From: Cyanophora paradoxa CCMP329
Lineage: Eukaryota; Plantae; Glaucophyta
Assembly (NCBI GenBank): GCA_004431415.1
Contig: QPMI01000533.1
Location: 378,643 to 442,642 of the forward strand
DNA: 64,000 bases
Reading direction: 5' to 3'
Shown here one piece after another: positions 8,621-53,570 of this stretch. Position 1 is the first letter of the stretch. Each line of letters starts with the position of its first letter. The position numbers were made by a program, and so were the translations under genes. A model generated the notes under the pieces. The model was not told the origin of the DNA and ran no database searches. It saw only the letters and a list, made by a program, of their open reading frames with translations.

Positions 8621-8835
8621 CGGGGAGGGGGGACCACGCGACCACACGGCAAAGCTAAAGATTCTCTACGTCCTAAATGAGCGGAAATACACTACTTCCC
8701 CTTAAGCGCAGTTGGGATCTAGAGTCGAAGCCCCACCCCTTCTCTCTCATTCGCTGAAGCTTTGCGTCTGATCATGATCATCTGAAATACACCGCCTCAC
8801 ATTGCTAGCTCAAGCGGAATCTGCGGCGCAGGGCC

Positions 8836-16800: not shown

Positions 16801-18206
16801 CTTTACCGTCGCTGGCGCCCGTAGCAACGAGGGCCCCGTCCGGGGAGACCGCAAGGGCCCTGTTCGAGGAGACCGGAATCTCAACGCGCAGAAGAAGCGT
16901 CCCGCTCGCCGACCATTTTAGAATCTGCTTCTGGGTTCCAGTATACACATTGTGTGTAGTGAAAACGAAGTTATCATTCGCTGGCGTGCCAATCGAGTCG
17001 AAATAAAGCATGCTCGGCCCAATGACCGTGCTGACATTCCCGAGCAAAAGCGTAGAATCGGGGGCAGCTGTTGCAAAAATCCCTGCAACCGCGGTGTTGG
17101 CGCCCGGGGGATTCAAGTATGTAGAGTAGGCAATCCGCGATCCGATACTGTCGAATGAGACGGCTTTGATTGGAGCTGACTTGTTGAACTCCTGAACAAG
17201 GGCACCGCTGCCTGCGGCCCAGATGCAGATGCGGCCATCCATGCCTCCAGTAAGGATACGTGAGCTGTCTTCAGAGATTGATATGAACGTTGAATAAAAA
17301 GTGACAATGCTGCCTGTGAAGTAAGCACTCACGATGACGCTTGCATTGATAGACCGCAGCACTGATGCGTCCGACGTGGAGACAAGTTTAATCATTGTGA
17401 CGGATGAGCTTCCAGAGACGAGCGCTGCGACAACAACGTACGATCCGTCCGGCGATAGACTCAACAAGTCGCTGCCAGCTGCGGATATGTCGAGGAGCCT
17501 GAGCCGCGTTCCATTGGTCGACCAGACACTCAAGCTGCTGTCAGACGATGCTCCCGACACGATGTTGCCGTCGGGCAAGAGGCCGAGGAATGTGGCCGCA
17601 TACAGAACTTGCCCAGTATTGTAGCCATAGCCATAATCACCGCCGAGCTTGTTTGCAAAGCAACATGCATCCGGGATTTGCTGGAACAGCGCGCCGTCTA
17701 TCCCCCGCAGGCTCGCCTTGTACGTGTTGTCCGTGCTGTTCTTGATCACGACGACAGCTGTGCGGGTGTCCGTCGACAAGCCAACGCGCAAGGGGCCGAA
17801 ACTCAAGGGGATCTCGACCCGAGAGAGGAGAGCGCCGGTCGAAGAGGAGAATGCCGACATGCCGTACTCCGAGGCGACGACGACGCTGGCGCCATCCGCG
17901 GAGAACCGCAAGAGGTTCAACATCCCGCCCTTGTGACTTACAGCGTGCAGCTGTGTGCCACTTGTCGCCAACCAGATGCGCAGCGAAGACGTGTACGGCC
18001 CGGATGTCATACGGCCATCGGCGGTCGCGACAAGCTGGCCATCAGGAGAGACAGCGACTGCGTCGACTTGGGATGTGTGTCCGATAAGGGTAACCAGTGG
18101 CGAAGCTGTCACCCGCACGTCGCGATCGCGAGCTCTCAGCAAGACGCATTAGAATCGGTTCATGATCAAGAACCCGAACCGGGGATGGACGTCGTCGGAT
18201 CGCCAT
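10802..18206 (-). CDS. Large membrane protein: WD40 beta-propeller(s), Pro/Thr linker, PKD/Ig-like domains, Gly/Ala stretch and TRP-like (PF06011-type) multi-TM C-terminus
   Basis: WD40 repeats in 16025-18142 (LIGHTSQVDAVAVSPDGQLVAT; ALAVSPDGALVATGASDGKVRLWS). PKD-like IILNGTLSSDTDGG, GTYFFNLTVVS, GAYSFEFVAIN. TM segments VVTVATVSATAAVSVGVVF, FWTLVLYIAVWAMRGVAVLVF, QLAVLLSICAAHLCFLAVVRPYIDNVENG, LALSLAALLLQAVAQL. Plausible splice joins link the parts; start codon uncertain. Confidence 0.7.
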
Positions 18207-22222: not shown

Positions 22223-22406
22223 AGCAGTGCCGCAGGCCCGCAGCTAGCCTAGTACCGGTAGATCCAGACTCCGGGAGTCCCGCAACGCGGCACTGCGGCG
22301 GCAGTGCATCAGGATTGATTCCGAATCTCAAATTATTCTCAATTTCCGATCAGGCGATGCCCGGCCATGAATGGCCCATGACAAGCGGAATCTGCGGCGT
22401 AGGGCC

Positions 22407-24486
22407 TCACGGGGAGGCGGCGAGACCTTCCATTTGGTCCACGAGGGACCGCTGCTTCTTGTATGCCCGCGCCTGCCCCGCAAGCTCCCGCCACAGCCGC
22501 CGCTGTCCTTCCGCGTCTGCGCGCCCGAGCGGCGTCGGCCGCGGGGTACGGCGGCCCGCGGGGGGTACGGCGCACCGGGGACGGATCGGACGAGGTCCGC
22601 GAGCGCTTCGAAGTCTGCGGGGTACGTCAGAGCGGCGCGGAGCGTTTGGCGGGCGCGCCGGCGCCCCGCCCGCACCGGTGCGGGGGCGTCGGAGGAGGCC
22701 GATGGCGGAGAGCTTCGTGGGGGGGGTACGGGCACGATCCGCTGGGGGCGGGCGGACATGGCCGCGGGGTGCGGGGAGGATGGCTCGTAAGGGGGGCCGG
22801 GGGAGCGCTTGGGGGCGAAGGCGGTGGAGGGCGGGCGGCGCGCGGCGGAGAAGGGGAGGGGCGAGGTGCGGCTGGGCTCAGAGGGGCCGGGGGCGGCTGC
22901 AGCTGCAGGGGACGGGGACGGGTTGCGGGGGGATGGCTGGCTGGGCCGGGCCCGCGGGGGCGGCGGAGCGGCGGCCGCGGGCGGAGGGGTACCGGTGCCG
23001 TTCGCGAGCGTCTCGGGGGCCGGTGGGGGCGAAGGGGCCGAGACGGAAAGGAGAGGGGGGAGCAAAGGTGGTCCCGGCGGAGGAGCGGCGGGGGATACGG
23101 CGGGCTCCTGTGCAGGGGGCAGAGGGGCGGGCGAGGCGGGGGGCTGCTCCGGGGGGACGGCCACGGGGGACGATGGGGCGGGGCCAGGGCCCGGGGTGCG
23201 AGGGGCGCCGGACGCGCCAGGGGTAGGGGCGGGCGAGCCGGGGCGGGATCCCGGGCGCGGGGGCGCTGGGGAGCGGGGCCGTCCGGGCCGCCTCCCGCGG
23301 TTCGTCGGGCCCTGCACTGCAGAGTCAACCGGATAAACACAAAAGGGCGCCAGGTGGATTCGATCCCGGACCTGATTGGCCTCGTCCTCCTCGTCGCCCC
23401 CCGGAGCGACGGCCGCGGGGGACGATGGGCGGGTCCAGGGCCTGGAGTGCGAAGGGCGCCGGGCGCCGGCGCGCCGTGGGAAGAGGGGGGAAGAGGAGGG
23501 GGGGGGGGGGGGGGGGAGGATGGGGATGCGGGATCCCGTGCGCAGGAGGCCGCGGAGAGAAGAAGATCGAAAAGGGGAAGGGAGGAGGGGGGGCGGGGAG
23601 GGGGGGGGGGGGGCGGGGGTGGAGGGCGGGTACCTTCGAGAAGATCAGAGGTACAGAATGAACCAGGGCGGGGGTACACGGACCTTGACGCGGCCGCAGC
23701 TGATGCAGCAGCAGACACGGAGCTCGATCTCGAGCTGCCGCTTCTGCTGCGTGATTGACTGCGCGAATTGCTGCCGGGCCGATTAGGCAGACCGGGCGGG
23801 GGTACGGGCGCCTGGCCGCTGGAAGGGCAGGGGGTACGCGCACCTGGCTAACGATCGCCTGCGCCGTGTTCTTGATGTTCGGCTTGAGCAGACCGGGTAC
23901 CTCCACAACGCCCTGCGGGGTACAGGGAAGCGTTTCAAACGCCGGGCCGGGCGGGGGGTACGGCTTGGCCCGGGCGCACCTTCAGCTTGTAGCAGATGCG
24001 GGCCTTGTAGCTCCCGCGCTCCTCGTGGAAGCTTGGGGGGGGGGAGGGGGAGGGGGGAGGTAGGCGGGGAAGGGGAGGGGGTACGGGCGTCGCGGCGCGC
24101 CTGGAGGGAGGTCGGGGGGTGGGGGGGGGGGAAGGAGAAGGGGAGCGGGTACTGGCCGGGCGCGATCTCGACCTGGTACGTCGCCATAGGGATCTTGACC
24201 TGTACCCGGGCGCGGGCGTTGGCGTGGGCGAGGGAGGGGGCAGGGGTACAGCACGCGGGGCGCCGGCGAGGGGGAGGGGGCGGGGTACTCTCAAGAACTC
24301 GTGCGTGCCCTCACAGCGGTCCGCGACTGTGTGAGAGCTCTTTCCGTCCGACACAGTCCGCTGCTCCGTCCACTCCGCCTGCGCGGCGCTCGGCGCGGGA
24401 CGCGCGTGCCGCGGCGCCCGCTCGCGGAGGCGGCTCACCTTTTCGAAGCCCTTGACCTTCAGCGCGATGCTGTCGGCTCTCGTGGG
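22407..24486 (-). pseudogene. Chimeric gene/pseudogene copy 2: longer arrestin fragment fused to a longer INTS6 3' fragment
   Basis: PTRADSIALKVKGFEK / AEWTEQRTVSDGKSSHTV / EIAPGQYPLPFSF / SFHEERGSYKARICYKLK / VEVPGLLKPNIKNTAQAIVSQ / QFAQSITQQKRQLEIELRVCCCISCGRVK; then 22407-23405 is near-identical to INTS6 44754-45745 (GGDEEDEANQ...YKKQRSLVDQMEG). Indels in homopolymers. Confidence 0.8.
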
Positions 24487-25429: not shown

Positions 25430-28400
25430 CCGGTGCGCGGGCGCTCGGGGGCGCTGCAGTGCGGAGCCGCCGCCTCCGCGCGGGAGCCGCCGCCGCGGCG
25501 GGAGCGCCCAGAGCGCGCCCCGCGCGCCGGCGCACCGGCGAGGCCGTCCAAGGCCGCCGCGCCGCCTTCCCCGCCTGCCCTGGCGCCGGCGCTTGCAAGC
25601 GCGCCCCTCGCCGCTCCGGTCCCTGCGCCGGCGCCGGCGCCGCCGGCGGGGGGCGGGCGCGTGTGGGAGGCAATGCGGCCGCTCGTGCCCGCTCGCAAGG
25701 TCGATCTGGAGGAGACCGGCACCCAGACGTGCGCCCGCCCCGCCCGCCTCCCTGCCCCGCCCCGCCTGACGCCGGCGCAGGGACCCGAGGAGACGGAGCT
25801 GACGGCGTCGATGTCCCTCGACGGCTCCTGCCTCTACGCTTCGATCCCCGAGGCCGCCTTCGTCTCCGACCGTGCGCTGTACCCGGCCCGGGCCCGGGCC
25901 CCGCGGCCGCCGGTGCTGAGGGCGGGCGGGGCAGAGGCCGGGGCCAGGCGGGGGCGCTGACGCGGGCGGGCCGGGCGCGCCTGTGGAAGGCCGGCCTGAC
26001 CGACGCGGGGAGGCGCCCCCGAGGACGAGGAGGGTGCCGGCGCCGTCGCCCGCCACCCCATCGCCGCCCTCCGCGTAATGCGCGCCCCCGCCCCGGCCCC
26101 CTCCCCGCCGCCCTCACCTCGCCCCCTCTCGCAGATCCGAGTACCCCCGGAGCCCCCGCACTGCCGACGTGCTCCTCGAGGAGAACGATCCCCGGCAGGT
26201 CCGCGTACCCCCGAGTGGACCGTACCCCGGTACCCCGGGGACAAACCGGTACCCCGCAGAGGAACGACATCACGATCCACTTCCTCGCGCTCGCCCCCCC
26301 CCGCCCACAGCAACGCCCCCCAGTCCGTCTACTTCACGTTCCAGGTTGGAACCCGCGCGGGCCCCTTTCCTTTCCGCCGGCCGCGCCGCCGCGTGACGCC
26401 GGCGGCCGGCCCTGCAGTTCTACCACTACGCCCCCGTGGTCACGGAGCCCCTCATGCTGGCCAAGCCGGCGGCCTCGGCGCCACCCACGGCCCCGCGCAT
26501 CCTGGTCCGCTCGGCCGAGCAGGAGAACAGCGACGGCCCGGGCCTCCCCATCAAGTTCAAGGCGCGCCGTACCCCCCCTGCTCTTCGAAACGGTTCCCGC
26601 CCAGAATCGAACCCGCGACCGCAGGTCGACCTGCCCAAGTTCGCGCGCGCGGACGAGTGCCGCGTCTTCGCCGAGGTACCCCCTTTCTCCAATCTTTCTC
26701 CCGCCCGCTGCAGCTGAACCTAACTTCGTACCCCCCTTCTCAGTACCTGCGGGACAAGGCCCTCGAGATTGACGTGTGGGACGCCACCTCGCTCTTCCTC
26801 ATCGGTACCCCCCCGCCCCTGCCCCCGAGACCTCGTACCCCTCCCTCCCTCCCGGCCGACGCCGGCGGGCAGGCACCGTCCGCATCCCGCTCAAGTCGCT
26901 CATGCGCAAGCACAAGGAGGCGGTTCAGATCACGCAGGGTCCGCGGGGGGGTACCGCGATGCTCCGGCCGCCGCTTACGGCGCGCCGGCAGAGTTCGAGA
27001 TCGTGCACACGCCGTATGGCCCGCCGCCGGAGGAGGAGGACGGGCTGTCGGCGCGGAGCACGCCGCTGCGGCCCGGGGGCGTCAACGCGACGCCGGGGCC
27101 CGTGTACAAGGCGCACGGCGCCCCGCAGGCCCGCGGCCGCCTGCAGCTCCGCATCTCCAACGAGGGCCACATGAGCGGTCCGTCCGCGGCGCCAACTCCT
27201 CCGCCGCGGCCCTCCCTCTCTGATCCGAGGGGGCGCAGAGGGCCCCAGGCCTGCGAAGGACGCGGAGGGGCGCCCCGCGCCCGCCGCGCCCCGGGTGCGC
27301 TCCTCGCTGGCCGTCATTCCGGTCTCCCGCCTTGGGACGGAGGTCCCCACGGAGCCCGGGCGCGTCCGCACGCACCGCGCGCGCCCCGTCAAAGTCTGCC
27401 CGCCCGCCCCCTCTCCGCTCCGAACTCCATCGCCGGGATTCGAACCCGCGTCGTTCAGGAGAGCGACCGGGAGCTCGCCGACGCGATCCGCGAGGAGGAG
27501 TCGCGCTACGCCGACTCGGAGGGGTACGCCGATCCCGGGGGGGTACGGCGCGCGAACTGGCGGGGTCTGAGGGACGGCCGCGGCGCAGGTCGGGGGTGGA
27601 GAGGCGGCCTATGGCGCGGGAGCAGGAAATCCGCCAGCGGGAGCGGAACCTGCGCGCGATCCAGAACTGGCGCGAGCGGTGCGCGCCGCCCGCTCGACGC
27701 TTTGCACGAGTAGCCGCAGCCGCGCGCTGAGCGGCGCGGTGCGGCGGGGCGGGCGCAGGCGGAAGAAGCAGGTGATCCAGGACATGCTCATGCAGAGCCT
27801 CACCACCGTCCACACCATCTACCCCTCCTTCGGCCGCACCTGGTGCGTACCCCTGCATGCAGCGGCCCCCGCGCCGCGAAGCGATCGCCGTACCCCCTCC
27901 GCGCAGCTTCTTCGAGATCGCTTTCGTGAACCCGTACCTCCACGACGACTGCTTCATCATCTCCTTCGACGACCCCGACCTCCGGTCCAGGTGTACCCCT
28001 CCTCCCGCCCGGCCGCCGCCGACGGCCCCCGGGAGGTACAGTATTGTGCGGGACACGAAGGAGTGGCGGGCCCACAAGCGCGTGCGCGGGCTCACGACGC
28101 CGCTCGAGGACGACCTCGTCTCCGAGCACAACGAGGTACCCCCGCCCCACTACTTCCCCCCCCCAACCTGACGGCGTACCCCCCGCAGCTGCTGGTGCAC
28201 GCGCGGGAGACGGTGTACGTGCCGTTCGTCTTCCAGAGCTTCAGCTGCGGGACGCTGCGGGCGGCGATGCTGGGCGACGGCGCGGCGGGCGGCGAGGAGG
28301 CGACGCCGCGGGCGCGGCAGGAGCGGGGCGGGGAGGAGGGCCCCGACGAGCCGATCCGCCCGCGCCGGACGGACGTCTCCTTCTACAACCGCGCCGGCCG

Positions 28401-30077
28401 CCTCGTCTACGTCGTCCGCGTCCACGTAGCCCCCCAGGTCCCCGCCCCGTACCCCCCGCCCCTTCCCCCCCCCCCCGTCCCTACTGACGCGCCGGCAGCC
28501 CTTCGCCCCCGACCGCACCTTCCGCTTCCACCACCCCGAGAACGACTTCTTCAAGGTACCCCCCTCCGCTCTGCATCCCTGTACCCTGCACCCCAGCGCG
28601 CCAACGGGGCGGCGGGCAGACGCGGCTGGGGATCGAGGTGACGGCGGCGTCGTCGCCGGCGGAGCAGGTGCTGGCGGCGCTCGACCCGGCGGGCCGCGGC
28701 TACAAGCACGTCCGCTGCTCCCACGCCAACGTCGTCGTCCGCACCGAGAACGGCGCCAAGCGCCAGGCGAGCCGGCCGTCCCGCCCTGAACCTCCCGCCC
28801 CGCCCCACCGGCTGACGCCCGCCCGGTCAGGACGTGTTCGTGAAGTACCGGTGCGGGGGCTGGCCCCACGTCGGCCGCTTCTTCCTCCTCGTCTACCACG
28901 ACCCCGCCAACTCGTTCCTCCACGAGGCCCGCCCCGCCCCGCCCCGCCTGTCCCCGCGCCCGCGCCCGGCTCACGGGGCGGGGCGGGGGTACAGGTGTGG
29001 CAGGTCTTCGTCTCGGCGCTCCACTCGATGGACGTCTCCTCCCCCGTCGGCCAGGCGCGTACCCCGGCCTCGAGACGGGGGGTACGCTGACCGGCCCCGC
29101 AGACGCACCGCGCCTCTCTCTTCATCCCCGCCGCCGCCGCCCCCCGCACCGTCCAGGCTCGTACCCCCCACCGCCCGCCCTTGCCCTTTCTCCGCTCAGC
29201 GGTACCCCCGCAGGTCCACTCCTCGAACCCGGACCTGGTGCAGGTCCAACCCTCCGCCCCCTTCGCCCTCGTCTCCGGCAGGCCCGCCATCCCCGGCCTC
29301 GTACCCCCTCCCCCGCCCACTTTCGAATTCGCCGCAGCGTCAACGAGCTCTCGATGGCGTACCGCCCCCTCCGCGTCGGGACCGCCGACGTCCTCCTCCA
29401 CGTCGTCGGTACCCCCCTCGCCTCCCCGTACCCCGCGGGACCCGCCGAGCGGGCCGCCCCGCAGACGTCGCGGCGCGGGAGCTTGTTGGCGCGTGGCTCG
29501 TCGAGACCAACGCTCGGCCCCCCTACGTCGGTGCGGCCCCGTACCCCTCTCCGGCCCCGGCCCCGCGCCCGGGGGAGAGCGGCCGGCGCAGGCAAGACCT
29601 TCGAGGTCGCAGTACCCTCCGGCATCGCCTGCAACAAGGTCCGCTGCGCCCCCCCCCTACCCCCCCTTCGTTCGCCACGCGTACCCTCGCGGTGGCGAAC
29701 GGCGGGCGCAGAAAATATCGTTCAAGAACCCGTACGGCGAGCGCAAGGCCTTCGTGCTGCGGACCAGTCACCCCCACCTCGTCCAGTTCCGGGACACACG
29801 GTATATACGTACCCCCGCCCTCGCCCTTGCCCCGGACCCCGTACCCCCCTGATCCGGGCCGGGGCCGGGGCCAGGCTCGACCTGGAGCCGTTCGGCGCGG
29901 CGTACATCGGCCTGCGCCTCCTCCCGCAGGTCCGATACCCCCCCCCCCCCCCCCCTCCCCCGCCCGAAGCCGACGCGGGGGCAGTCGGTGCCGCGGGTGG
30001 AGGAGGTGCACGTCTTCGTGAACGACGCGGAGGACAAGAGCGAGGACTGCCTCTGCGTCCGCGTCCAGTACTGCTAG
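25430..30077 (+). CDS. NPHP4: Nephrocystin-4 (ciliary transition-zone protein), middle C2 domain and C-terminal Ig-like domains; N-terminal half not found
   Basis: Exons give EENDPRQ/RNDITIHFLA, SVYFTFQ/FYHYAP, YLRDKALEIDVWDATSLFLIG, RGRLQLRISNEGH, FFEIAFVNPY, DRTFRFHHPENDFFK, KTFEVAVP, KISFKNPY, VHVFVNDAEDKSEDCLCVRVQYC*, matching recalled NPHP4 motifs (TVYFTFQFY, LQIDVWDGDSLLLIG). Stop TAG 30075-30077; 5' boundary approximate. Confidence 0.9.
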
Positions 30078-30695
30078 CCGGGCCTAGCCTCCGCCCCCGC
30101 CCCCGCACCCGGGCCTCTCTTGCGGGGCCCGCCCCCGTCTTTTATTCAAGTTAAGCTCTTCGGTTAATCGCGCACGCACGCACGTGCGCTGCTGGGCACC
30201 TCCTGGGCCGCTCTTGCGAGGCTCGCAGGGCCAGCCACCGTCTTTCATTCAGCTCTTCGGATTTCATACACGGCCGAGCTCGAGCTGAACATATATGAGC
30301 TATAGCTGAGAGCTACAGATGCAGCTCATGATCAAAGGCTCCGGATCCCCGAGCTACAGCTGAGAGCCCCCGAGCTACAGCTGAGAGCCGCGGCCGGCGC
30401 CCGGCCGGGGCGCCGGGATGTTCGTGGGGAGGAGGGGTAGCAGGAGCCGCCGAGGCGGAGAGGCTTGCCCCTATCCCTAGCTATAGCTATATCTTAGAAA
30501 AGGGAGCGGGGGAAACGAAGCATCGAAAAATGAAATCGAAGCTTTCAACCTATAAGCTCCCACCCGCCTTCTGATTCTATTGCAAATGATTTTTCACAAT
30601 ATCAATGCATTGCAGCACGTGCACGTGCGCATGCACCGGCCCTACAAATGCTGTGTGGCGCCTATCAAAAGCTGCAGGCGCCTGGCTTTCTTCTA

Positions 30696-33600
30696 TTATC
30701 TATCTGAAAAACCGAAGCAAACCGTTGATGAGGCCGCCGAGCTGATGCCGCATGGTGATGAGTCTGGACTGGAACGGGTAGAGGCGCTTGGGGGGCAGAA
30801 TTTCGTATCCGCACGCGATCAGCAGCCGAAGCAGGGCTGCGGCGAGGCGGGGCGAGCGGGCGGGGCAGCGGTCCGGTCAGAAGCGAGATGCTGGAGGCAT
30901 GGATTAATATTGCAGACTCCGACTCGCCTTTGACCGTGTTCTTCGCCATCGCCTGCTCGTCCACGATCTCGATCGCGGCGGCGGCGCTGGCGGACTGCCC
31001 CGGCTCCACGCGCCGGCGCACGCCAAGGCACTCGTACGGCACCTGGGGCCGGGGAGAAGGGGCGAAGAGGGAGGAAGCGTCGTTAACGCTGTCAGTCAGG
31101 ACGACGAGGTCGCAGAGCAGAGGAGCGGCGACGTTGGCCATGGCGCACCAGGAGGTTGTTTATCTGGCGCTGCTTGCTCTTGTCGGGCCCGTACATGAAG
31201 CCTGCGCGGCGATGGCGGGCCGGGCGCGTCATGGAAAAAGGAAGGAGGACGCGACGCGACGCAGATTAAACGGGAAAGGGGGCGGACCCTCGCGCTTCTT
31301 CTTGCGGGCCCAGACCTCGTGGGCGTTGCGCGCCAGCAGGTCGACCAGCTGCTCCATCCCGTGCTCGTCGTGCAGGGGCTGGGCGGACGTCCTCGAGAGC
31401 CACTCGGTCGGCCACCAGCTCCAGTCGACCGCCCCGTTCCGGCTCTTCATCTCCTGCGTTTCGGAAAAGTGTTGGACTTCAGAAAGCGCGTGTCCAACGA
31501 TATATAGAACATCGTCTTACGTCGAGCTTTTTCTCATACGTCTTCCTGTTGACCCTCATCAGGATGTAGTTCTGCGCACAGTCCAATTGCTTTCAGATCC
31601 AGTTGTCAAGTTCGATTTCAAATAAAGTTATACCTTCGGCAAGTTCTTTTGGGTGATGTAATGCTTCCACGCGGGATCCCGTTCCAGCACGTTGACGTTC
31701 GAGTTTTCAGTGCTCGGCGGCACAAACTTGTAGCTGCAAGCAGGTCAGCCCAGCTAGCAAGCATAGCCGATGCATAGCTATAGTCAGTCGATCGAACCCG
31801 CAGTACATTGCCGCAAAAATAATCTGCAATAGCAGCACTGAGCGTGCAATGTAGAGATAGAGGTATCTCCTTGCATCGTTCACAAACCTCGAGAGCCTTT
31901 CCAATCTCCTCTTCGAATTCTTTCTTGTTGACTTCTTGCACGCTCTTGCCCTCGACGATTTCATTGTCGCTTAGCTTTCGCAGCGAAAAGAAATTCTGCG
32001 TGCGTACGGTTCATACACCCGCAGACGTGCCTGCCGCATGCCGCATGGTTGCACACACCTGAAGTTCGCTGTTCAGCTTCCTCTCGTCGTCGAAACCCTT
32101 TTCGCAGTACCTGCACAGGCATGATAAACCTTCCTACTAGGCTACGCGCTCTATCACAAGCGATGCGCTAGAACGCACTTCCAGCCGTCCTTCACGCGGC
32201 TGCGGACCCACTGGTCGTGGTGGACCATTCCGAGCGCGACGACGAGGGAAATGTCAGTCCGTTCGACGCGCACCTGCGATGTGAGCGATGTTGTCAGACA
32301 ATTGCGACGTGATTTGCAATTGCAATCGGCGCGTTGCGTCTCTTAGACTCAGACCTTTTCAGCACGGGCGATTTCTTCAAGATTGCTCGTTTGCATCGGC
32401 TGTGACTTCGTCGGCTCGAGCTCTATAGCTACATCTTCGGATTTCGTGATCGTCGCTATTTCAATTGGAACTCTGATGCGGCGTAGAGAGTCAAGCAATT
32501 TCTCGCGTCTGCTAGCGCGCGCAAGCAATCAGAACGATATGTACACAGGAAACCCGATAGTGTTTCGTGCAGTCTGCGCACGCATTCTCGTTCGCTGATA
32601 CGCCGGAGCTCGAGGTTGTATCGTAAGGGCGAGGCAGCCAAATCGCGTTTCTTTCAGCGTTCTGAGTGCAGGCGTCGCATGAGATTTCGGAATATGATCA
32701 TCACTAGTACTAACCATGTCCATTTTCACAAAGCAGTGCGCGGGCAACGTCGAAAGGAAGCGCAGGGTCTGCGATGCAAGTAGCTCATGATCATGAGAAC
32801 AAAAACGAAGTCAGCCAATCGAAAAGACAATGCTGGCTCGCCTCGGCCTTCACGTCTGTCTCATTTGCTCCAAAGCGCTTTCTGAGGGTGATTTCGCGAA
32901 CGATGTCCGCAACCTGTCCATGGCCGATGGTTGCAGTCTGTGCAAATACGACGCAGACCTCATAATAAATAATATGACACACCTCATCGAATCGGAGCGA
33001 CTCGCGAATGACGAGTGACTGCCCACCCTCGAGCTCGGAAGATACGTTCATGATTGTGAGATAGAGATCCTGTACGCGCCGATCGAACTGCAACATCGAG
33101 AATTCAGTTGGATTTTATCAGTGGATAGGTAGCTATGCAATTTCAAGGGAATACGTATACCTCATTCACAGCCACAGTGAGGTGCTCGTAGAACTCCGGC
33201 TTCAGACCCGCCCGCTCGAGGATCTTCTGCTCGCCCTGAGGACAGAGTTTTTACGTCAAGGCATGAAAAGTTCATTGCGGCTTCGAATTCGTCGACGTAC
33301 CCCGATCTCGCGGATAGCCTTGCGTCGGCCCACAACTTGTGTCTCGTCCTTAAGCTTGTCAAAAAACTCAATTGCCTCCTTGTGCTTCGCCTCCGAATCT
33401 GGAAGGCAGGGAAATCACGTGAAAGACGTGGTATATGTATTCGAATTTCTGCTGTGCTCGCCTACATACGCGCTGTTGCGCGCTGCTGCAGGCATTAGAT
33501 GCGTTCACTCTGCACGAGCATGATTCACGCAATGGATAAAGTGCTTGCCTGCGATCGTGGCCTCGTTCTCTCGGCTGGACACGACGTGCACTTTGGAAGA

Positions 33601-36600
33601 CTTGAGTTTGTCCACCAAGTCGACCACGCACTTCGTCGCCTCTCCGATGGCCTGCAATGCGTGTGAGGCGCTCATTTCATCATGAAAGTGCACGATGGTC
33701 TACATTGACGCTGCTGCGAAGAGAAGCGCACCGCGCGGTAGAGAGCGTCGATCAGAACCGCGTCTTCTACAAGGAGACGAAAAGTGTCGCTTTTGATTTC
33801 CTGCAGTCGCATGGAATGAGCAATTCATGATCAGGTGTACACAGACACGCCATGCACCGTTGCGCGATGCTTGGCTGCCAAGTTCTTCAAAGCTTCAATG
33901 ATCTGATTGAAGTTCGCTCACTTTAGACTCCGTGTTTGCATTGAAAATCACAAGAACGAACCAAGAGCATATCATCGAGCGCAAAAGTGCGGCGCACGAA
34001 GCGTGCCGGCGTCAACACGCAGTACGACCCGCGGTTGTCCAGTAACCGCTGCAGCTCAGCGTTTCGCTCGCTGATGCTCATGAGCTCTTCCTCCAGCTGC
34101 GCAGCAAACGTTGGTCGGAGGCAATATCTAGAACAGAGCTTAGAGCGCTGGCTTCGCACATCTAAATCATCGATGAGGCGGCTTGGCGGGTCCATTCCGT
34201 AGCTTCTGAAAGTGTGGAGAACGCGGTTGTGCAGTACAACGTGCGCATCGCGCAGATAGAAATATCCCACGAGCTTCAACAGAGCCCTGCCATGAAATTG
34301 AAGGCTCGGTAAGGAATCAGTTATGCAAATGAAACGCAGCTGCGACTCACAAGGGCGCAATTTTGAGGTAATCACCCTCCTTGAAGCTGAACGGCTCATT
34401 CTGGGGCTCCAATTTGCTGAATCCTTGAACACACAAAAGATCTAGACATCCGACAAAGCGTCCTTTCACCCAGCCTGCAATGCTGCCCAGCCAAGAGAGC
34501 TTGCCCTTATTGACAAAAAGTGTGCGGAACGTGTAGTCCGCGTCGCTCCACTCCACGTCAATGTACTTGTTCGTCATCTGTGCCAAGTTAAGCCCATCAA
34601 ACCATTTCGTTTCCCTACAAACAGCAGACAGGAATGCAGCGCGCCTCTACCACCGAGAATTTCGCCAATGTGTCCTCCTTAATGTACACGCGCGATTCGC
34701 GATCGCGATCGGGCTTTGTTTCGTTGTTGTTCTCGTCGGCCTTTGGATAATTATCTCGCCTTCCTATCAGGTTGAGATAAAGGCCGTTCTGAAAGAAGCA
34801 CGCAGCTTTAGTGAGTACACTTTCGCTTCAGATTGCGTAACCAATTCGGCGTACACGAATTACATCCATCATGAATCGTGCCGCCGGATCGTCCAGGTCA
34901 GTGATAATCTCAGCGGCAATGTTCTGCGAAACAAGGTCTGAGGGCATACATGCATATGCAGCCGTTGCTGCGCATGCGCATCGGATGACCTTGTTGCCCA
35001 GGGGCGTGTCACCGGACTTGTCGTTCAGCGCCAGAAGCTCCGTGCTGAATTTGTCCCATTTTATTTTCGAATTAGTATTGTTCGTGTTCTGAGTATAGTT
35101 AGGTGTATTCGGATTGCTCATGTCCTGAGTGTAGTCAGATATAAACCACAACATTCACCGCGCCTGGGAGTGCGCACCTTAAGCTTCTGTTGCTTTATGG
35201 CTTCTCTGTGCTTCTCATGCACCGCGTTGAGGGCCTTGCGGGCCAGAGTGTCACGGTCCTTCTGCTCGCAGTACGCCTCCGAAAGCCAGAGCTGCATTAC
35301 AAGGCGTGAGGTACACGTGCCAGTGGGTTCGACAACTGCAGTGGAAATGGGCTCATCGAACCCGGAAGCGACTCCTCTTGTCATCCCCCGGACCCGGCCG
35401 CGGCAGCAGCTTCGCGTCTCTATGCAGCTTCTTGATCTGGAGTCTGGCCTGGACGATTTTGGTGAAGGGGCTCAGGTGGTCCTCCGGGCTCAGGAGCTCC
35501 TCGAGCTCCTCCTGGAGCTTCACAGCCTCCGCCCTGAACGGCCGCGTGAGCGAGGGGGAAATCGGCCAGCTGCAGCCAGCGGGCAGCGCTAGCGCGAGCA
35601 CCCAGCCTCGTCGTAGTTCTTGGGAGGACCGGAAAAGCCGCACGTTAGCGCACGCGTAGAAATCACAATTGCCGTATATTGAAAGATGCACACCTTGCTC
35701 AAAATGGCGATGAAAATGTTCTGTACAAAGCAGAACCGTCAACCCGCGAGAAACATATATAATACCCAGGCCGCCGCAAATCAAACAGACCACGAGGACT
35801 AGGCCCATGACCACAATGAAGGAAAAGTAGAAGATCTGTGCAAGGCATGATCTTAAAATCGACAGAAAGCATTTTAAAGCTTACAACGCCGGCAACGGGG
35901 GAAACTTCGGCCATCTTTGACGCATCAAATCCTCCACTCAGATTGCTGCGATATATATCGATCCCGTTTGTTGATCATGAAGCGTATAAACAGGCGCATG
36001 TGTCTTACCCGAAGAGATTTGATATGCTGCTGTACAACGAGCGAAATTCTGGACCGGGAGTTAGAGAAATTGCTTGAGAATATTGAAGCGCGTGGGACCT
36101 AGCTAGCCGGACCGGAAAGACGGTGTCCCTGCGAGAATATTAACACAAAAGATACCGTTGAACAGACGGGGACGGGAGCTGTACGCACAAATATGACGCA
36201 GGCCATAGCCGCGTATCCGCAGAAGAGAATTGCTGCGTGCGGGGTAGGAAAGTAGGCGTCGGTTTCAGCGAGGCATGCGTTTATTTCAGCACATTCTGTT
36301 GTATTCTGTATATAGCCGCATATTAGCCTAGCTATGCTCAGCCTTGACCTGACGTATGCATGGTTTGATAGCTGCAGTCTTCGAGCTGCTTATAGTTGTA
36401 GTCGGCATTAGATTTGATCGCATCTCAAGTTTAGCCTAAGTTTGGTCTAGTCTAGGGTACGTGTGTCTGTCTTCGGGGAGTACAGGATTAGCCGCTGCTC
36501 GTCTCCTCCGGTCAAGTACCGTGCCTGGGCTCCGCCCGGGCGTGCGCTAGCGACCTCTAGAGATGGCTCGTCTGTTTCGCCTCCTAGCTCCGCCGCCGCC

Positions 36601-39600
36601 TCATTAGATCCGCCCGCTGCGCTCTGCCTGGTGCTCCCTAGCGCCCGGCCAGTGCACGCCCACTCGCTCTAGTATCTTAAGGGGGCCGGGCGTGTACAAC
36701 AATTCGTCACTAATTTGATAGCAGGGAGCAAACCGAATATGAAGACAAATGCTGCGAGGTCCGGCATAGCCTGCCGTATCGCCGTTAGATTATTTTACGA
36801 ACCAATTACGCAACCGATCGCGAGCTGCACAATTCGAACGTTGACAGTACCTTTGCGATGGTGTTGGTGAGGACGGCCAGACGCGGAGTGAGCTCGAGAT
36901 ACTTGTACGCCCGCAGGCAGCAGATGAGGATCGACACGCCAGCCAGCTGCAGGGCGCCGATGGTCAGCGGCGGGTTTAATTTCACAATCAACATCGTTGC
37001 GCACCTGCTGAATGCTACTCATTAGGTCCAAGCCCCGGTCGAAGTCATAGAATCGGGCAGATTTATTGGGCGATGTGAAACTCATTGTAGTTGTGTTGTG
37101 TGCTAATGCAAGAGATTTCGAATCATAGAATCGGGCAGGATTAATGCCTGCGGCGAGCCTCCCGAGCATTTTCGAACAGAATGAATCTGAAATTAAAAGA
37201 ACCGATTCAGCGTGAATAGGCATATAAATCAAGCCCCTGCATCAAAGAAGCGGACAGTACTGAAGGCCGTAAAAAAAGGCAGCGAGAAGAAGACCCAAAT
37301 TGAGGAGATCCAAGATGTTCCACCTGTCACCTGCAAGAGGTTCGAGGGTTGATATTCAATATATACTGAATTCATATGCATACTTGCACCTGTCAAATAT
37401 TCGACAAGGCCGCTATTCCACATTTCGAAAATCTCGAGGAGGATATAGACTGCACGCGAGACTCAAACCTTGACTTGGGGGGGGGGGGGGGGGGGGGGGG
37501 GTGACTTGGACACCACTGACCAATCACAAGTGTGTAGAACACGATAGCTGCGTGCGAGCTCGCATGAGACATGAGACAAAATGCATCTGGGAAGCGAAGG
37601 CACACCAAGAATGGCTGTGTGCCACTCAAAGGTATCGAGGTGCAACGTGTCCACTCTCACGCTCGGCATCGCCAGGCCCTAATACAAGAGACATCACGGC
37701 CCGAAGGGGAGCGATGCGGGCCAGCAGACGCACAGCGGTCGGAAACTCAATCATAAACGCCATTGTGATGAAAGTGCCTGCAGATGATCATGATCGAGAC
37801 CATATATATAAGGCGGCGCGCCGGAATGGTTGCAATATTAATGTAAACGGCACGCGCTGGTGTGTGGGTTCTGCCAGTTGGCCTCCACGGACACGACCCG
37901 TGTACCCACGTCCAGCCAGTTCCCGTTCTGCGGGCAATTGCAATGGGCGCGGCACGCGGGAGCGCTAGCGCTTCAGCAAGACAGACCTTTAGAGCCGCGA
38001 TGGTCGCAAGATTCTCTTCGATACGAGCAGCAGAGAGCATCACAACATAGCCTCCCTGTTGATTGCAAATGACACGACATCAGGAATGATTATAATTAGT
38101 ACTGCACGGGGGAAATTAAAGATGGCAAGTGAATGTCTCGATAGCAACGATCACGGCCGCGGTGCACAGCGATGCCGTTCCACTATAGCTCAAGAAGGGG
38201 ATTTGTAACAAGAGACGGGCCTTGCCGTAGGTGGACACGACGTCGCTCGTGATCCAGTCGCGAAGGTACCGCGCGGACGGGTCGAGGTCCGACATCCCCC
38301 CTCGCCAGGTCCAGCTGCGTGCAACCCAACGATATCGATCGCAAGCGCTCGCGTTCACGAAGCCGCAAACGTAACGCACGCGTCGCTCTCGAGGCCGAAC
38401 GGCAGGCGCTCCTCGCTTCCGGGGCCGAAGTCGTGGAAGCACCTGGTCGGCAAGTCAGCGCCATCGATATCGATAGAAATATCGCCGCGGCGGGGCCCGC
38501 GCACTGCGACTCGACAAGGTGGTCGTGGCCGGGGACCGCCGCCTGGCACGTGTACGCGGTGCTCCGTATCTGATCCCAGAGCAGTCATCAGGATGAGATC
38601 ACTCTAGACACAGCCTGGAGCAGCCCGGCGCGCACCTGCCGGATGCGAATGGCTCCGACCTGGCGCCGGAATTCGCGGAAGGGAGCGTGTTGGGCGTTCG
38701 CGGGATCGGTGATCGGCATCAGAACGTCGGATAGCCACTCGTACACATCCTCTGCCGGAGTTCAAGTGCGTTCGCGTTCGCGTCAGGGGTACCGGTCCCT
38801 CGGCAAAAACTTCAGGCATAGGGCAAGCTCACCGGCATCCTTGATGTTCTTGAAGGCCTGGGGTGCGTGATGTACGATCAGAGCCACATCAAGGTCACAG
38901 ATACAGTTGCACACGCGAACCTCCTCCATGTTCAGGTGCCCCTCGACAATAAGACTCTCGTTTTGCTCGTAGTTAATCTGCAGGGGTGCGAAAGAATGCG
39001 AAAGATGCCAGCATAAGCCCAGGAGTCGCGCAGCGAGGGATGCACATGGGGCGCAGCGCACCGCTGCAAGAGTGAATTGAAATAGAATACGTGGTCGGCG
39101 AGTGAGTGAAGTGGCGAGTAAAAGAAGCGCAGGGCCGGGGGCACAGCGAACCCACTGGAATGACTCGGATGGCAAGGAATGCAAAGAGCATCACGAACAG
39201 AATGTAGACGCCGAGCTCGCTGCGGCCAAAGCCCGCTGTTCAGATGCAGCGGGCCCAGCTGCACTCGGCCATGTTCATGCATATATATATGTCTGCATAC
39301 CGGTAAAGTTTATACTGCGCGAGACGCTTGCGCCAAACGCGGAGGTAGATCTCGGTAGAGCGAACATCAAGCTTCATGTCTTGGAAGAGGCTGTCGCAAG
39401 AGGTCAGTACATATATATAGGAGGCCTAGGCATGCCGTTCATTGGCAGCGACATGAGATGGTCGCACTCAGAGATAGCTTTAACGACGTTTCCGCCTCCA
39501 TTTGACTTCGTTTCGTGGTCCTTCGGACCCTCATGGGAGTCGGACGGATCCGGATCCCAGCCGACCGCGCCAGCAGCAGGCCTAGGAAGCGAATTCACGA

Positions 39601-40009
39601 GCTGAGAATGCGCATCCGAATGCACCGAGCTAGACGGCTGCCCGAAGCTCTCGAAGAAACTAGCACTCTCCACATTGATGTTGACGTCGGATCCAAATGG
39701 GCGCGAGAGCCCGGCCGGCCGCGCCCGGCCGCCCAAACCGACTCGCGATCGGTAGGCAGATGCGGAGCTCGGAGCGACGGAGCCAGCGACGTCGGAGGGA
39801 CGGTACAGAACCGCGCTCTGCATGGCCACCGGCAGAGGCTGCATACTGGAGCTGGAGAAGTAGCCTCCGGATCCGCTCTCGTCCCCGCCGAAGGTCGCAT
39901 ACGAATCCTCCAGAGATTGGGCTGAGCGTGCGTGCGGATACAGCGACACTCCGGCTTCGCTCCCGCTGGCGCGGTCGCGATCGTCGTGCAAACCGCCGCC
40001 GATGTACAT
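30696..40009 (-). CDS. Polycystin-2 (TRPP)-type cation channel with long cytoplasmic tail ending in two RyR domains (PKDRR-like)
   Basis: S1 ELGVYILFVMLFAFLAI; TOP domain CFHDFGPGSEERLPFG and MAFMIEFPTA; WNILDLLNLGLL; LRAYKYLELTPRLAVLTNTIAK; pore EFRSLYSSISNLFG/NLSGGFD; S6 IFYFSFIVVMGLVLV/NIFIAILSK. RyR domains MVHHDQWVRSRVKDGWK/YCEKGFDDERK (~32080-32270) and LLARNAHEVWARKKKREG/FMYGPDK...LL/VPYECL...ALLRLLIACGYEI (~30800-31370). Confidence 0.85.
36297..36701. mobile_element. Solo LTR (405 bp) inside an intron of the polycystin/RyR gene
   Basis: Termini TGTTGTA...TACAACA (7-bp inverted repeat, TG...CA); 4-bp TSD attc at 36293-36296 and 36702-36705. Confidence 0.85.
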
Positions 40010-43354: not shown

Positions 43355-44753
43355 TAATAGATCGATCAATGTCGAGCTTCAGACTCGGATGGAAAAAGCC
43401 CACAGGGCCGGCGCCGGGGCCCGGGGGGCACGCTCCCACTGCCTCTCAGCGTGCCGGGTTTTCAAAGTTTGTATCATAGTATGGGACTGAGAGAACTGAG
43501 GGACTGAGGGACAGTTTGTATATATGGTTTTCAAAGTTTGGTGACTCAGTCGGGTCATGATCAGTCAGACCCGGGACCCTCCTCTGACTTTTACTGCAGC
43601 TGACCGTCGACGTCGGACAGTGACTGAACCCAGCCCTAGTCCGGACTCCGGACTCGAGACTCCGGAATCCGGACTGACTCAGTGAGTCCGGACTCCGGAC
43701 TCCGGAGTACTAGTAGGGCTGTCGACGAGCCTGTCGTCAGTCATGATCAGTCCCGCGCGCGGCCGCGCGGCCCGCGCCGGCCGGCGCGGCGGGGCCGCCG
43801 GCGCCGGGCCGGCGGGCTGACCCACTGGGCCAGTCGGTCAGCTGCAGGCTGCAGCGGCCCCGGCGGCCGTCAGCCCCCCTGACTGTGACTGAGTCAGTCA
43901 ATCTAAGGTTCAGTCAGGCTACCGTACGTGCAAAAGCTGTGAAAAATGACCCGGAAATGACCCAAGTGCGATCTGTCTACTTCATTTAAGTAGCGAAGCA
44001 TGGCGCTGCATGGGGCAGGAGCAGTAAGGGGTGACGGGCGCCGGCGCCGTCCGCTGCGTCGCCTTCGAATTCCTGAGCTCCGTTTTCGCCTTCACACTGT
44101 GACAAACTTTGACATAAAGTTTTCCGAAGTAGAATCGAATTTTTTGATTAGTCCTCAAAGATAGGGGCCGGACGCGTGCGCCATCCGCTGCATCGACTCG
44201 GCGATGTCGCCCTTCCGAGTTTCGATTTCGCCGTTTCGATTTTACTTACGAATAGCAATGTTTGCGTAGCCGACTCAAAGTCGTGTTAGGATTGTAGTTT
44301 CCGCGATACTAGTAGTCGATGTTCAGATGCAGCCTGGCAGCGCCCGTCCATGGCCATTCCGAGTTCGTCTTCAGACATAATTAAATAAATGCATTGACTG
44401 TCGGGACGATTCGAAGTGAGTAGCGTGCAAGCATCGAGGCATTGAGAATCGCATCGGATCCGGAAACTTTGAAAGCATTCCAATTGCGCATGCAATTGGC
44501 AAAACTAAATGTAGTCGCCATACAGAAATCTGTACCAGCTCCCGCAGTTCAGAACCAAAGTAAAGCCCCACCCTATAGCTAGGCCTTCAGTGCATGCATA
44601 TGCAGTTTAACGGTTGCTCGATGTTCATGCCAGTCGACGTCAAGGCTTCCTTCCCCTTCGCTGAAGCTGAAGCTCTGAAGCTCTGCTACTGATCATGATC
44701 ATGATCATCTGAAATACACTGCTTCCTAGCCCAATCATCTGCAGCGCAGGGCC

Positions 44754-47700
44754 TCACGAGGCGGAGGCGAGGCCCTCCATTTGGTCCACGAGGGACCGCT
44801 GCTTCTTGTACGCCCGCGCCTGCTCCGCCAGCTCCCGCCACAGCTGCCGCTGTCCTTCCGCGTCTGCGAGCCCGAGCGGTGTCGGTCGCGGGGTACGGCG
44901 GCCCGCGGGGGGTACGGCGCACCGGGGACGGATCGGACGAGGTCCGCGAGCGCTTCGAAGTCTGCGGGGTACGTCAGAGCGGCGCGGAGCGTTTGGCGAG
45001 CGCGCCGGCGCCCCGCCCGCACCGGTGCGGGGGCGGCGGAGGAGGCCGATGGCGGAGAGCTTCGTGGGGAGGGGTACGGGCACGATCCGCTGGGGGCGGG
45101 CGGACATGGCCGCGGGGTGCGGGGAGGATGGCTCGTAAGGGGGGCCGGGGGAGCGCTTGGGGGCGAAGGCGGTGGAGGGCGGGCGGCGCGCGGCGGAGAA
45201 GGGGAGGGGCGAGGTGCGGCTGGGCTCAGAGGGGCCGGGGGCGGCTGCAGCTGCAGGGGACGGGGAAGGGTTGCGGGGGGATGGCTGGCTGGGCCGGGCC
45301 CGCGGGGGCGGCGGAGCGGCGGCCGCGGGCGGAGGGGTACCGGTGCCGTTTGCGAGCGTCTCGGGGCCGGCGGGGGCGAAGGGGCCGAGACGGAAAGGAG
45401 CGGGGAAGCAAAGGCGGCACCGGCGGAGGAGCGGCGGGGGTACGGCGGGCTCCGGTGCGGGGGCCGGAGGGGCGGGGAGGCAGGGGCTGCTCCGGCGGGG
45501 CGGCCGCGGGGGACGATGGGGCGGGGCCGGGGCCCGGGGTGCGAGGGGCGCCGGACGCGCCAGGGGAAGGGGCGGGCGAGCCGGGGCGGGATCCCGGGCG
45601 CGGGGGCGCGGGTGAGCGGGGCCGTCCGGGCCTCCTCCCGCGGTTCGTCGGGCCCTGCACCGCAGAGTCAAACGGATGAGAAAGAGAGGGCGCCAGGTGG
45701 ATTCGAGCCCGGACCTGGTTGGCCTCGTCCTCCTCGTCGCCCCCAGGGGCGGCGGGGGCGCTCTGCGGGGCGGCGGCGGCGCGGGCGGCGGCGCGCGCCG
45801 GCGACCGGAACGGGTTGCCGAAGTTGGGCCGAAGTCGCCCCCGGTCCTCGGGGTCCTCTGGGGGTACGGGATCAAGAGAAGGGGGGAAGACAGCGGGAAC
45901 GGGGCGCCGCACCCGAGAAGGGGTCCCGGGGTACCTCGGTCTTCGCCAGCTTCTCGTGGTAGTTCCTGCACGCGCGCTGGACGTCGGCGGCCGAGCCTCT
46001 CAAGAAAAGAGAGCGAGGATGGAATGAGCGTACCCCATCGCGGCGACCGAGACGCTGTGCCGCTCGGCAGCCTCTTCCACCCCGCCCGCGGGGCTCAGCA
46101 TCCGTCCGTTCACGGGCACCGCCGGCGCGGCCGGCGGCCCCGGGACGAGCCGCCTCAGGTGAAGGGCGCGGAGGGGTAGGCCCTGCAACCCCAGCTCCTC
46201 TCCCCCTCGGAAGGGCTCCGGCGCGGCCTTCGCCGCCTCCGTTTGAGCATTCTCCTTCCACTCCTCGGGTACTGCGATCGCGGAGACGTCAGCGGGGCCC
46301 GGCGTACGCATGTGCACCTGCGGGGTGGGGGGGCCGCGCACGGGACGAGGGGGGCGGGGCGTCGTCGCCTGGGCTGCTCCAGTGCGCAAGGATTGCGAGC
46401 GCCTCGGCCCTCTGCAGTTCCTCGGGCGAGCTGCGGAGATGAAGAAACGGGTAATTCAGGGGCGAAGGCAAAATGCGGGACGACAGAGCGTACCGGGAGG
46501 TCGGGGGTGGCCTGACGGTGGCGGGGGCGGGCGGGGGCGTCGTGGCGGGCCGGACGGGGGCGGGGGAGGGAGCGCCGGTGGGGCCCTGCGCGGGGGGCTC
46601 CGGGGTACAGTCAGCGACGACTGATTCAAAGGGGCTGCCGATTTCTTCGTGCGCACCGGCGGGGCGGAGGGCGGCTGCTGGACGGTCTGCGAGACGCACT
46701 TAGGGAAGGGAGCGCTTCAGGTCAGATCAGATCAGATCAGATCTGACCTGCTGTTGGGCGACGGCGGCGGCCTCCGCCTCCGCCTTGGCCTGCTGCTTGA
46801 GGCGGCGCAGGTACCCCGCCACAGCGTTGCTCAGCGATACTTCCTGGCCCTGGCGGGGGGGGGGAGGGGGGGTATGAGGAGGGTGAGAAGGGAGGCAATG
46901 GGGTAGGGGGTAGGTGAGGGGTGGGAGAGACCTGGAGGGTGTCCGGGAAGACGGCGGGGGAAAGTCCCCAGCGCTTCAGCGTCGTCCGGAGGGGTACGAG
47001 GTAGTAGGGGGGTACGCTCTGCGACCGGGTCGGTTGGGGAAGGGAAACAGGGAGGATGAAGGAGGGTACCGCGAGGTACTTCTCGAATTCGGAGCGCCAG
47101 CGCCCCGGAGGGCCCCCCGACGACTTCGACGCCGTCCACTGCACCCGGGTTAGGGGGGAAGGGGGAGGAAACCGCGGGGGGTACGCGCGCGCCTCGTCGA
47201 GGAGAACGAAGAGGCGGGGGAAGTTGTAGGGGAGGAGGACGAGGAGGGCGCCCTGTCCCCCAGGGGTAGGCCGAATGTACCTAAAAATAGGTCAGGGAGC
47301 GTGCGGGGCGAGGGGCGGGCCGGGGCGGGGGATGCTGGTACCCCACTGGATCGCCGAGGGCGCCGGGGGTCGGGTCGCGGCTGCTGCCCCGAACGTACGC
47401 CTGCGCCGAAAGAGGTCAACGAGGCGCCAGCCGCGCATTATTTGGAGGGGCGTGCGCGCCAGGATCGGGGCGCGTGCCGAGGCCTGCGCGAGGTGGCCAG
47501 AGAGCGGTGAAGACTCCAGCTCGTACCTGTACCCCCGGTCAATCCTCGAGGGAGGAGAGAGGGGGCGAGGGGCAAGCCGCGCCGGGCCGCACCGGTCGGA
47601 GGGAAAGGTATCCGCGAGGCTGCTGAGGGTCCCCTCGCCTATCCGCAGGACCACAGTCGGGTGCGCCCGCCGCGGCGGCTGCGGAGGCGTCAGCGCCGAG

Positions 47701-53324: not shown

Positions 53325-53475
53325 GGGCTAAATTGCCGAATTTCCGTGCACGTGGTGTTATAATTAATTTGCCGAATTAGGCCCCATAGCAATCTACTAC
53401 GTCTTCGATAATAGCAATTTGCCGAATTAGGCCCCCATAGCATAATTAATTTGCCGAATTAGGCCCCATAGGCCC
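53325..53475. repeat. Three copies of aatttgccgaattaggcccc(c)atag next to the satellite
   Basis: Copies at ~53366, ~53416 and ~53447; core resembles the aattcggcaatt motif of the 42.6-43.4 kb MITEs. Confidence 0.75.
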
Positions 53476-53570
53476 CCTGCACTAGTAATGGTCGACGTCT
53501 TCGTTTTGACCCTCCTATTGTTGCCAAAAGTTGTGCCGCCCCCACGTGCACCTCCTGTGATCGACTATGT

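Follow-up and report, generated by a model that had tools for sequence, protein, structure and literature searches.

A predicted polycystin-type channel gene ending in two ryanodine-receptor repeats in the glaucophyte Cyanophora paradoxa, with relatives outside the oomycetes

Polycystin channels that carry two C-terminal ryanodine-receptor (RyR, or R) domains, termed PKDRR, are described in the available text of three sources as restricted to oomycetes, and have been suggested as a target for selective fungicides (Zheng et al. 2020, PMC7399828; Zheng et al. 2016, PMC4820453; PMC9694693). The P. infestans protein is reported at the cell surface and as multimers in the part of PMC7399828 available to us. 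Two forms are distinguished: PKDRR A, with an LGA filter and over 10 residues after its second R domain, as well as PKDRR B, with an AG(D/E) filter and a tail of fewer than 10 residues. Here, we describe a gene of the same architecture on the minus strand of a 64,000-nucleotide (nt) stretch of Cyanophora paradoxa CCMP329 (contig QPMI01000533.1), referred to below as the window. On the evidence of its sequence, we lean towards the view that a single gene encodes a TRPP cation-channel subunit with a tail ending in a Repeat12-like pair, and that the family acts as a nucleotide sensor, weakened in this copy. This explanation is anchored in the domain order, the host, the paralog family, the relatives in three distant lineages and the Repeat12 fold of those relatives.

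The predicted gene resembles PKDRR by architecture and departs from both A and B in its filter and its host range. It shares with oomycete PKDRR A and B the order of PKD channel, linker and paired R domains at the C-terminus, with a weakly common module just before the RyR pair, and the tail of 34 residues exceeds 10 as in PKDRR A. It differs from the oomycete proteins in its glaucophyte host, longer linker, S-G-G filter and degenerate repeat 1, and it contains 54 introns, whereas P. infestans PKDRR B has two exons (Zheng et al.). In both the RyR-pair tree and the channel tree, the C. paradoxa copy groups with neither PKDRR A nor PKDRR B. The hand-built model runs from 40009 to 30700, is intron-rich, and keeps its frame open across 1662 residues when the exons are joined from their coordinates. 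Its features are as follows:

30700..40009, minus strand: whole predicted gene; 55 exons, coding sequence of 4989 nt, 1662 residues, putative start codon
39159..39390, minus strand: pre-S1 helix and S1 (residues about 181-231), from hydropathy and alignment
37628..39158, minus strand: TOP (polycystin) domain, residues 232-450, from the Polycystin_dom match of database fragment P0008 and alignment
36893..37612, minus strand: S2, S3, S3-S4 loop and S4, from an exon-frame match, hydropathy and alignment
37045..37146, no strand assigned: in-frame 78-bp insertion (26 residues) in the S3-S4 loop, from the direct repeat at its flanks and alignment
35694..36770, minus strand: S5, pore helix, filter and S6, from hydropathy and alignment; contains a 501-nt intron (36233-36733)
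33004..35693, minus strand: cytoplasmic linker of about 540 residues, with no Pfam family in relatives
32650..33003, minus strand: pre-RyR helical module, residues 1236-1288, with an RFDE motif, from alignment and profile
31724..32643, minus strand: RyR repeat 1, degenerate and with insertions; ligand positions H-W-N-E
30805..31366, minus strand: RyR repeat 2, followed by the 34-residue tail; ligand positions H-W-N-A

The 54 introns (48 GT-AG and 6 GC-AG, median 66 nt) are similar in size to the RNA-confirmed introns of the neighbour gene (53-80 nt), and the stop codon lies at 30700-30702. Because the splice sites were picked manually, the open frame partly reflects how the model was built and is no proof by itself. 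For this reason, colinearity with annotated paralogs serves as an independent check. P0004 (C. paradoxa g11560), which carries PKD_channel and RyR, aligns with model residues 424-1633 in one high-scoring segment pair (46% identity over 1210 residues), and P0007 (g11561, the neighbour of g11560) covers residues 151-420 at 55% identity. A possible 2-nt micro-exon at 39062-39063 was also observed, which would split a 178-nt intron into GT-AG introns of 88 and 84 nt and restore two residues that homologs have.

The motifs on which a preliminary description of this DNA had been based were all recovered on the minus strand in the order it gave. Through three-frame reading, the HDQW motif was placed in exon 32273-32179, the HEVW motif in exon 31453-31288, and the GFMYG, VPY and IACGYEI pieces, in that order, in the final three exons. 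The S1-TOP-S6 module, the linker and the two RyR repeats that it had recognised are likewise borne out by the model, with the refinement that repeat 1 is degenerate. The two Pfam families that it had singled out for checking, PKD_channel and RyR, were both matched at the locus. Among 11 single exon frames, one matched PKD_channel (E = 0.0075), one RyR (E = 0.04) and one an unrelated transmembrane family, with eight giving no match; a further single exon frame matched RyR at E = 6e-5. Among database fragments from the locus, P0001 matched RyR (E = 2.6e-14) and P0008 matched Polycystin_dom (E = 3.9e-7). The record of P0008, which matches model residues 186-341 with 100% identity, assigns it to this contig as Cyanophora paradoxa g17403; the host is therefore a glaucophyte, which agrees with the earlier impression of a non-oomycete genome. 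A query with a 55-residue exon returned a 100% identical EukProt protein, g17401 (155 residues, RyR only), and one paralog. The public annotation splits the locus into g17401, which holds the last RyR repeat, and g17403, a 163-residue N-terminal piece from pre-S1 to part of TOP; this fragmentation may be the reason the fusion was overlooked.

In the channel part, hydropathy peaks mark S1, S2, S3, S5 and S6, while S4 was located by alignment, giving the six transmembrane helices with TOP between S1 and S2 that characterise TRPP channels. The model scores 449 bits on the local family profile, in line with a PKD/TRPP channel with a TOP domain. The likeness to polycystin-2 and PKD2L1 extends over S1-TOP-S6 by profile (312-322 bits) and by the fold of a Gloeochaete relative, from which the differences are an added RyR pair, a long linker and a missing acidic filter residue. 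In PKD2, the filter Asp has a role in Ca2+ selectivity. The alignment places S-G-G at this position, where oomycetes have L-G-A or A-G-D and Diphylleia has S-G-D. The filter of the C. paradoxa copy therefore has no acidic residue and differs from the LGA of PKDRR A, from the AG(D/E) of PKDRR B (as the tail length also does) and from the LGD type of polycystin-2 cited in PMC7399828. Judging from these residues, the Ca2+ selectivity implied by the preliminary description has no support. Its suggested flagellar or endoplasmic-reticulum location also found no support, the oomycete protein being reported at the cell surface in the accessible part of PMC7399828.

The insertion in the S3-S4 loop is flanked by a direct repeat of 24 nt at 88% identity, with the first 16 nt identical. 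Its core (37059-37118) matches pieces of RNA contigs with depths of hundreds to thousands, and no Rfam match was found at 36200-37300. The insertion looks as if part of an abundant transcript or repeat had been integrated with a target-site duplication. The 501-nt intron is the one long intron of the gene; the ends of other RNA contigs match 36299-36442 and 36491-36701 within it, and these matched pieces are likely a repeat element.

The linker of the Gloeochaete structure model consists of a beta-rich part followed by a helical part. A globin-like or SH3-like reading of linker pieces, made by eye, was set aside, being without Pfam support in relatives. The pre-RyR module may resemble the C-terminal EF-hand region of PKD2, which a fold search did not single out (best Z score 5.5, with no family standing out). 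On the local repeat profile, repeat 1 is weak (20 bits) and repeat 2 clear (78 bits), and two R domains are thus present. The pair recalls that of ryanodine receptors, the family profile fitting Repeat12 (E 6e-61) over Repeat34 (E 4e-37). It belongs, however, to a different channel superfamily: the channel is N-terminal and TRPP-type, neither MIR/RIH domains nor a C-terminal GGG(I/V)GD pore of the ITPR/RyR release channels was found, and MIR, RIH and SPRY domains were absent from the scanned relatives. Structure models, made of relatives rather than of the C. paradoxa protein itself, agree with this assignment. The model of Gloeochaete P0009 matched PKD2 (Foldseek E 5e-24, TM 0.84 of the target) and Repeat12 of RyR3 (E 1e-12), and the Diphylleia tail model matched R12 with a Z score of 17.7 and a root-mean-square deviation of 2.8 over 177 aligned residues. 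The ESM Atlas returned generic RyR and PKD clusters (0.82-0.90).

R12 binds AMP-PCP/ADP in its cleft and closes in a clamshell-like manner, according to the accessible part of PMC12627627. In the text seen of two further studies, phage RyR domains cleave or sequester isomers of cyclic ADP-ribose (cADPR) through His, Trp, His and Asp residues spaced 3, 22 and 17 apart (PMC13232231; 10.64898/2026.06.04.730250); neither oomycetes nor polycystins came up when their main texts were searched by word. The PKD+RyR family shows the same spacing per repeat as these phage RyDEP and RyR Tad proteins. It differs from them in that the phage proteins are described as soluble single-repeat dimers, whereas the C. 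paradoxa pair is fused to a channel. Ligand positions were assigned by motif spacing and not by alignment with the phage proteins. On this basis, 14 of the 24 family rows have all four residues intact in both repeats and 19 have them intact in one repeat or more, one row of this table (P0080) being annotated without a channel part. The five rows with no intact repeat are the C. paradoxa copy, P0004, P0080, P0132 and P0050.

Nucleotide-binding domains on the cytoplasmic side of a channel also occur in TRPM2 and cyclic-nucleotide-gated (CNG) channels, which serve as an analogy only, the sensor fold being unrelated. In the mechanism we propose, four subunits would assemble around a non-selective cation pore of the PKD2 kind; ATP/ADP, ADP-ribose (ADPR) or a cADPR isomer would be bound between the two RyR repeats, whose cleft would then close; and the linker would transmit the movement of the pair to S6. 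The C. paradoxa copy, a member of a fast-evolving Cyanophora subclade, might bind more weakly, bind a different ligand, or act as a modifying subunit in mixed tetramers. With H-W-N-E and H-W-N-A at the ligand positions, it is unlikely to be a glycosidase, and weak or different ligand binding is probable. A broader proposal, that PKD+RyR proteins form an ancient TRPP family older than the divergence of Archaeplastida, stramenopiles and CRuMs and gated through Repeat12 by ADPR, cADPR isomers or ATP, is offered as speculation that we think is probably wrong in at least some part.

Several observations count against our main reading. The His-x-x-Trp motif is kept in both repeats, but the phosphate-binding His is lost in both and the Asp in repeat 2, so the His-Trp-His-Asp set of the RyDEP type is incomplete in each repeat. 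To this are added the indirect assignment of ligand positions, the missing acidic filter residue, the hand-chosen splice sites and the loop insertion, which is missing from all 11 homologs covering the loop. In addition, HEK cells expressing PKDRR did not respond to either of two agonists (PMC7399828), and no PKDRR is known to conduct ions. The strongest competing explanation, to which we attach a lesser but real weight, is that the RyR pair serves only for protein contact or assembly, with gating by mechanical, lipid or partner-subunit cues. Such a role for the R domains was suggested in the part of PMC4820453 available to us, and it would suit the loss of ligand residues in the C. paradoxa copy, P0004, P0080, P0132 and P0050. 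It accords less well with the retention of all four residues: both repeats have them in all 5 named oomycete rows and in 3 of the 6 from Cyanophora, and repeat 1 has them in all 3 from Diphylleia. This retention suggests selection on the pocket.

The architecture extends beyond the published range. A HMMER search with the paralog P0002 gave 130 matches, of which 43 were selected by score and length for a domain scan. Both PKD_channel and RyR were found in 19 of the 43: 4 from Cyanophora, 3 from Gloeochaete, 2 from Diphylleia, 4 from oomycetes and 6 others. The Gloeochaete (G. wittrockiana) and Diphylleia (D. rotans) sequences come from transcriptomes, the Cyanophora paralogs were counted from protein records, and additional searches revealed a third Diphylleia channel-plus-RyR gene. 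The records of 30 proteins named no hosts other than glaucophytes, Diphylleia and oomycetes. Word-index searches with the family alignment and with the Diphylleia S4-S6 region gave 4 matches each, and a metagenome scan returned 80 loci, 79 of which match the RyR region. With channel-plus-RyR proteins in Cyanophora, Gloeochaete and Diphylleia, the published restriction to oomycetes does not hold. Glaucophytes are not mentioned in the accessible text of PMC7399828, and among the matches listed in the open-access literature there was no report of a PKD+RyR fusion in glaucophytes or Diphylleia. C. paradoxa seems to be without InsP3-receptor homologs, as stated in the available part of PMC4844392. 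The HMMER matches also included RyR pairs fused to a K/CNG-type channel with a cNMP domain (P0031, P0045, P0066, P0095), to ankyrin repeats, some with a channel-like part (P0018, P0053 and others), to RGS (P0011, P0046) and to EF-hands (P0056, P0070).

The preliminary description had left a choice between an unrecognised lineage of the family and an independent fusion. Of the two, the unrecognised lineage is the better fit, since Cyanophora has a paralog family of this architecture and Gloeochaete and Diphylleia have it too; a strict common origin with the oomycete PKDRRs is possible. A module of about 55 residues directly before repeat 1 aligns across glaucophytes, Diphylleia and oomycetes. 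A profile of it from 8 glaucophyte proteins gave 65 bits for the model, 32-39 for Diphylleia and 14-18 for Aphanomyces/Pythium, at the same place in each. Across 165 proteins, no ankyrin-, CNG- or animal-type RyR protein matched this profile, nor did the RyR-less Anaeramoeba polycystin. The 22-row channel tree resolves separate clades, one of glaucophytes (100/99), one of Diphylleia (100/99) and two of oomycete type, none nested in another, and hence no recent transfer is seen; conclusions on monophyly are bounded by the single sound RyR-less outgroup, Anaeramoeba. The contig L003 is short and could simply stop ahead of an RyR pair. The RyR-pair tree comprised 37 rows, namely 19 of the 24 PKD+RyR-type sequences and 18 others of known architecture, after exclusion of near-duplicates, fragments and several long branches. 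Here, glaucophytes and Diphylleia form one clade (100/98), and the pairs of oomycete type fall in with ankyrin-, CNG- and C39-linked ones. The comparison with oomycete PKDRRs foreseen in the preliminary description thus yields separate clades for the channel and, for the RyR pair, a borderline test result.

A single origin of the PKD+RyR family is favoured, with vertical descent given an even chance and an old transfer a much smaller one. The family is likely older than the divergence of glaucophytes, CRuMs and stramenopiles, with widespread loss since. Some results sit uneasily with this. An approximately unbiased (AU) test marginally rejected a single clade of the 19 PKD+RyR pairs against the 18 others (p = 0.032), and the pre-RyR profile reached only 8 bits in Saprolegnia, which is not significant. 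Leave-out channel profiles, for which matched lengths differ, were mixed: the glaucophyte-only profile gave 270-314 for oomycete-type channels, 259-271 for mammalian PKD2/PKD2L1 and 255 for Anaeramoeba, and the oomycete-type profile gave 362-389 for Gloeochaete and 263-287 for Cyanophora, the latter below Anaeramoeba (293).

The AU result, together with the grouping of oomycete-type pairs with ankyrin-, CNG- and C39-linked ones apart from glaucophytes and Diphylleia, would be expected if the glaucophyte/Diphylleia lineage and the oomycetes had each added a RyR pair to a related TRPP channel, and the presence of such pairs on several other channel types indicates that fusion is easy. We nevertheless consider independent fusions rather unlikely. 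The pre-RyR module stands just before repeat 1 in all three lineages, and the oomycete-type profile reaches into it in the Gloeochaete and Diphylleia proteins, which it does not do in mammalian RyR. Moreover, a wider clade, defined post hoc, from which the pair was later exported to ankyrin, CNG and C39 proteins was not rejected (p = 0.205), and the tree contains long branches. A single origin followed by eukaryote-to-eukaryote transfer, in place of inheritance from a very old ancestor, appears less probable still. It would account for the patchy range and for the union of the RyR pairs of the distant glaucophytes and Diphylleia at 100/98, and the Diphylleia transcripts possibly derive from prey. 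Against it, the channel tree shows no lineage nested within any other, sequences from different lineages share only 22-36% identity, and the gene has 54 host-type introns.

Turning to the integrity of the locus, RNA contigs from two studies, X5 (4747 nt) and X8 (4753 nt), each join S6, three linker pieces and RyR repeat 1, the RNA status of both runs being a software guess. Their pieces are 85-89% identical to this gene among the matches listed, and their spacings of 1408 and 671 nt agree with those of P0004 (1407 and 672), which indicates that the closest paralog is transcribed with the channel and repeat 1 joined. Separate transcripts for the channel and RyR exons, which the preliminary description had named as an objection, are thus answered at the paralog only, by one contig spanning S6 to RyR repeat 1. 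In X5, X7, X8 and X11, the pieces on the gene's exons are 85-89% alike among the matches listed and represent paralogs, and the runs differ by a few percent from the window in the neighbour gene; they are accordingly no evidence on expression of this locus. An equal distance from S6 to repeat 1 in the model and the paralog contig (2127 nt) was discarded as a coincidence of +96 and -96 nt. From the model and its paralogs, we infer that the channel and R domains of this locus lie on one polypeptide. The paralog contig extends 750-880 nt upstream of the annotated start of P0004, and the g11560/g11561 annotation is therefore probably split too. A second RNA contig of 4.5 kb (X5, X8), probably another expressed paralog, matches 31307-31350 in RyR repeat 2 about 700 nt from its end.

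That the C. paradoxa copy is a decaying duplicate of the expressed g11560/g11561, either a young pseudogene or a silent paralog, seems improbable. Such decay could explain the in-frame 78-bp insertion with a direct repeat inside an exon, the eroded ligand residues, and a guanine-cytosine (GC) content of 0.547 against 0.70-0.74 in the flanking genes. The 55 exons nevertheless have canonical sites and require no stop or frameshift, the third-position GC content of the model is 0.72 against 0.53 in introns, and the expressed paralog is similarly eroded in its ligand residues. The pattern of conservation relative to P0004 is a functional one, with 69% in both S2-S6 and the pre-RyR module and 37% in the first half of the linker; this speaks against a pseudogene and is still compatible with recent silencing. 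Finally, two neighbouring genes as publicly annotated, a channel gene and a small RyR-only gene, are very unlikely despite the 155-residue RyR-only protein and 163-residue N-terminal piece in EukProt from this contig, as the longest intron from S6 to the stop (106 nt) leaves no room for a promoter, P0004, P0005 and P0009 are colinear single proteins, and the paralog contig joins S6 to repeat 1.

Elsewhere in the window, a GC-rich, expressed, many-intron gene at 26400-30100 (plus strand) lies tail-to-tail with the channel gene; we take it to resemble nephrocystin-4, and four of its exon frames gave no Pfam match. A 661-residue uninterrupted reading frame with WD40 repeats at 16025-18010 (minus strand) is unusual amid short exons. 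A dispersed repeat of about 0.6-1 kb occurs in three copies 91-95% alike (8769-9431, 22382-23412 and 44696-45755). At 53571-64000, a tandem array with a 480-bp unit (at least 21.8 copies, 99% alike) runs off the end of the window; it is possibly a satellite, and no Rfam match was found at 53400-54700.

The presence of these proteins in glaucophytes and Diphylleia removes the oomycete-specific premise of the fungicide-target proposal, and pushes the fusion, or a parallel fusion, far back in eukaryote history. The binding of adenine nucleotides and cADPR isomers by RyR repeats, reported in 2025-2026, makes the role of the R domains on a channel directly testable. This includes the cause of the silence of the oomycete protein in HEK cells, where no such ligand had been applied intracellularly. 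Harmless, culturable hosts, together with natural variants carrying intact and eroded pockets, are at hand for such work.

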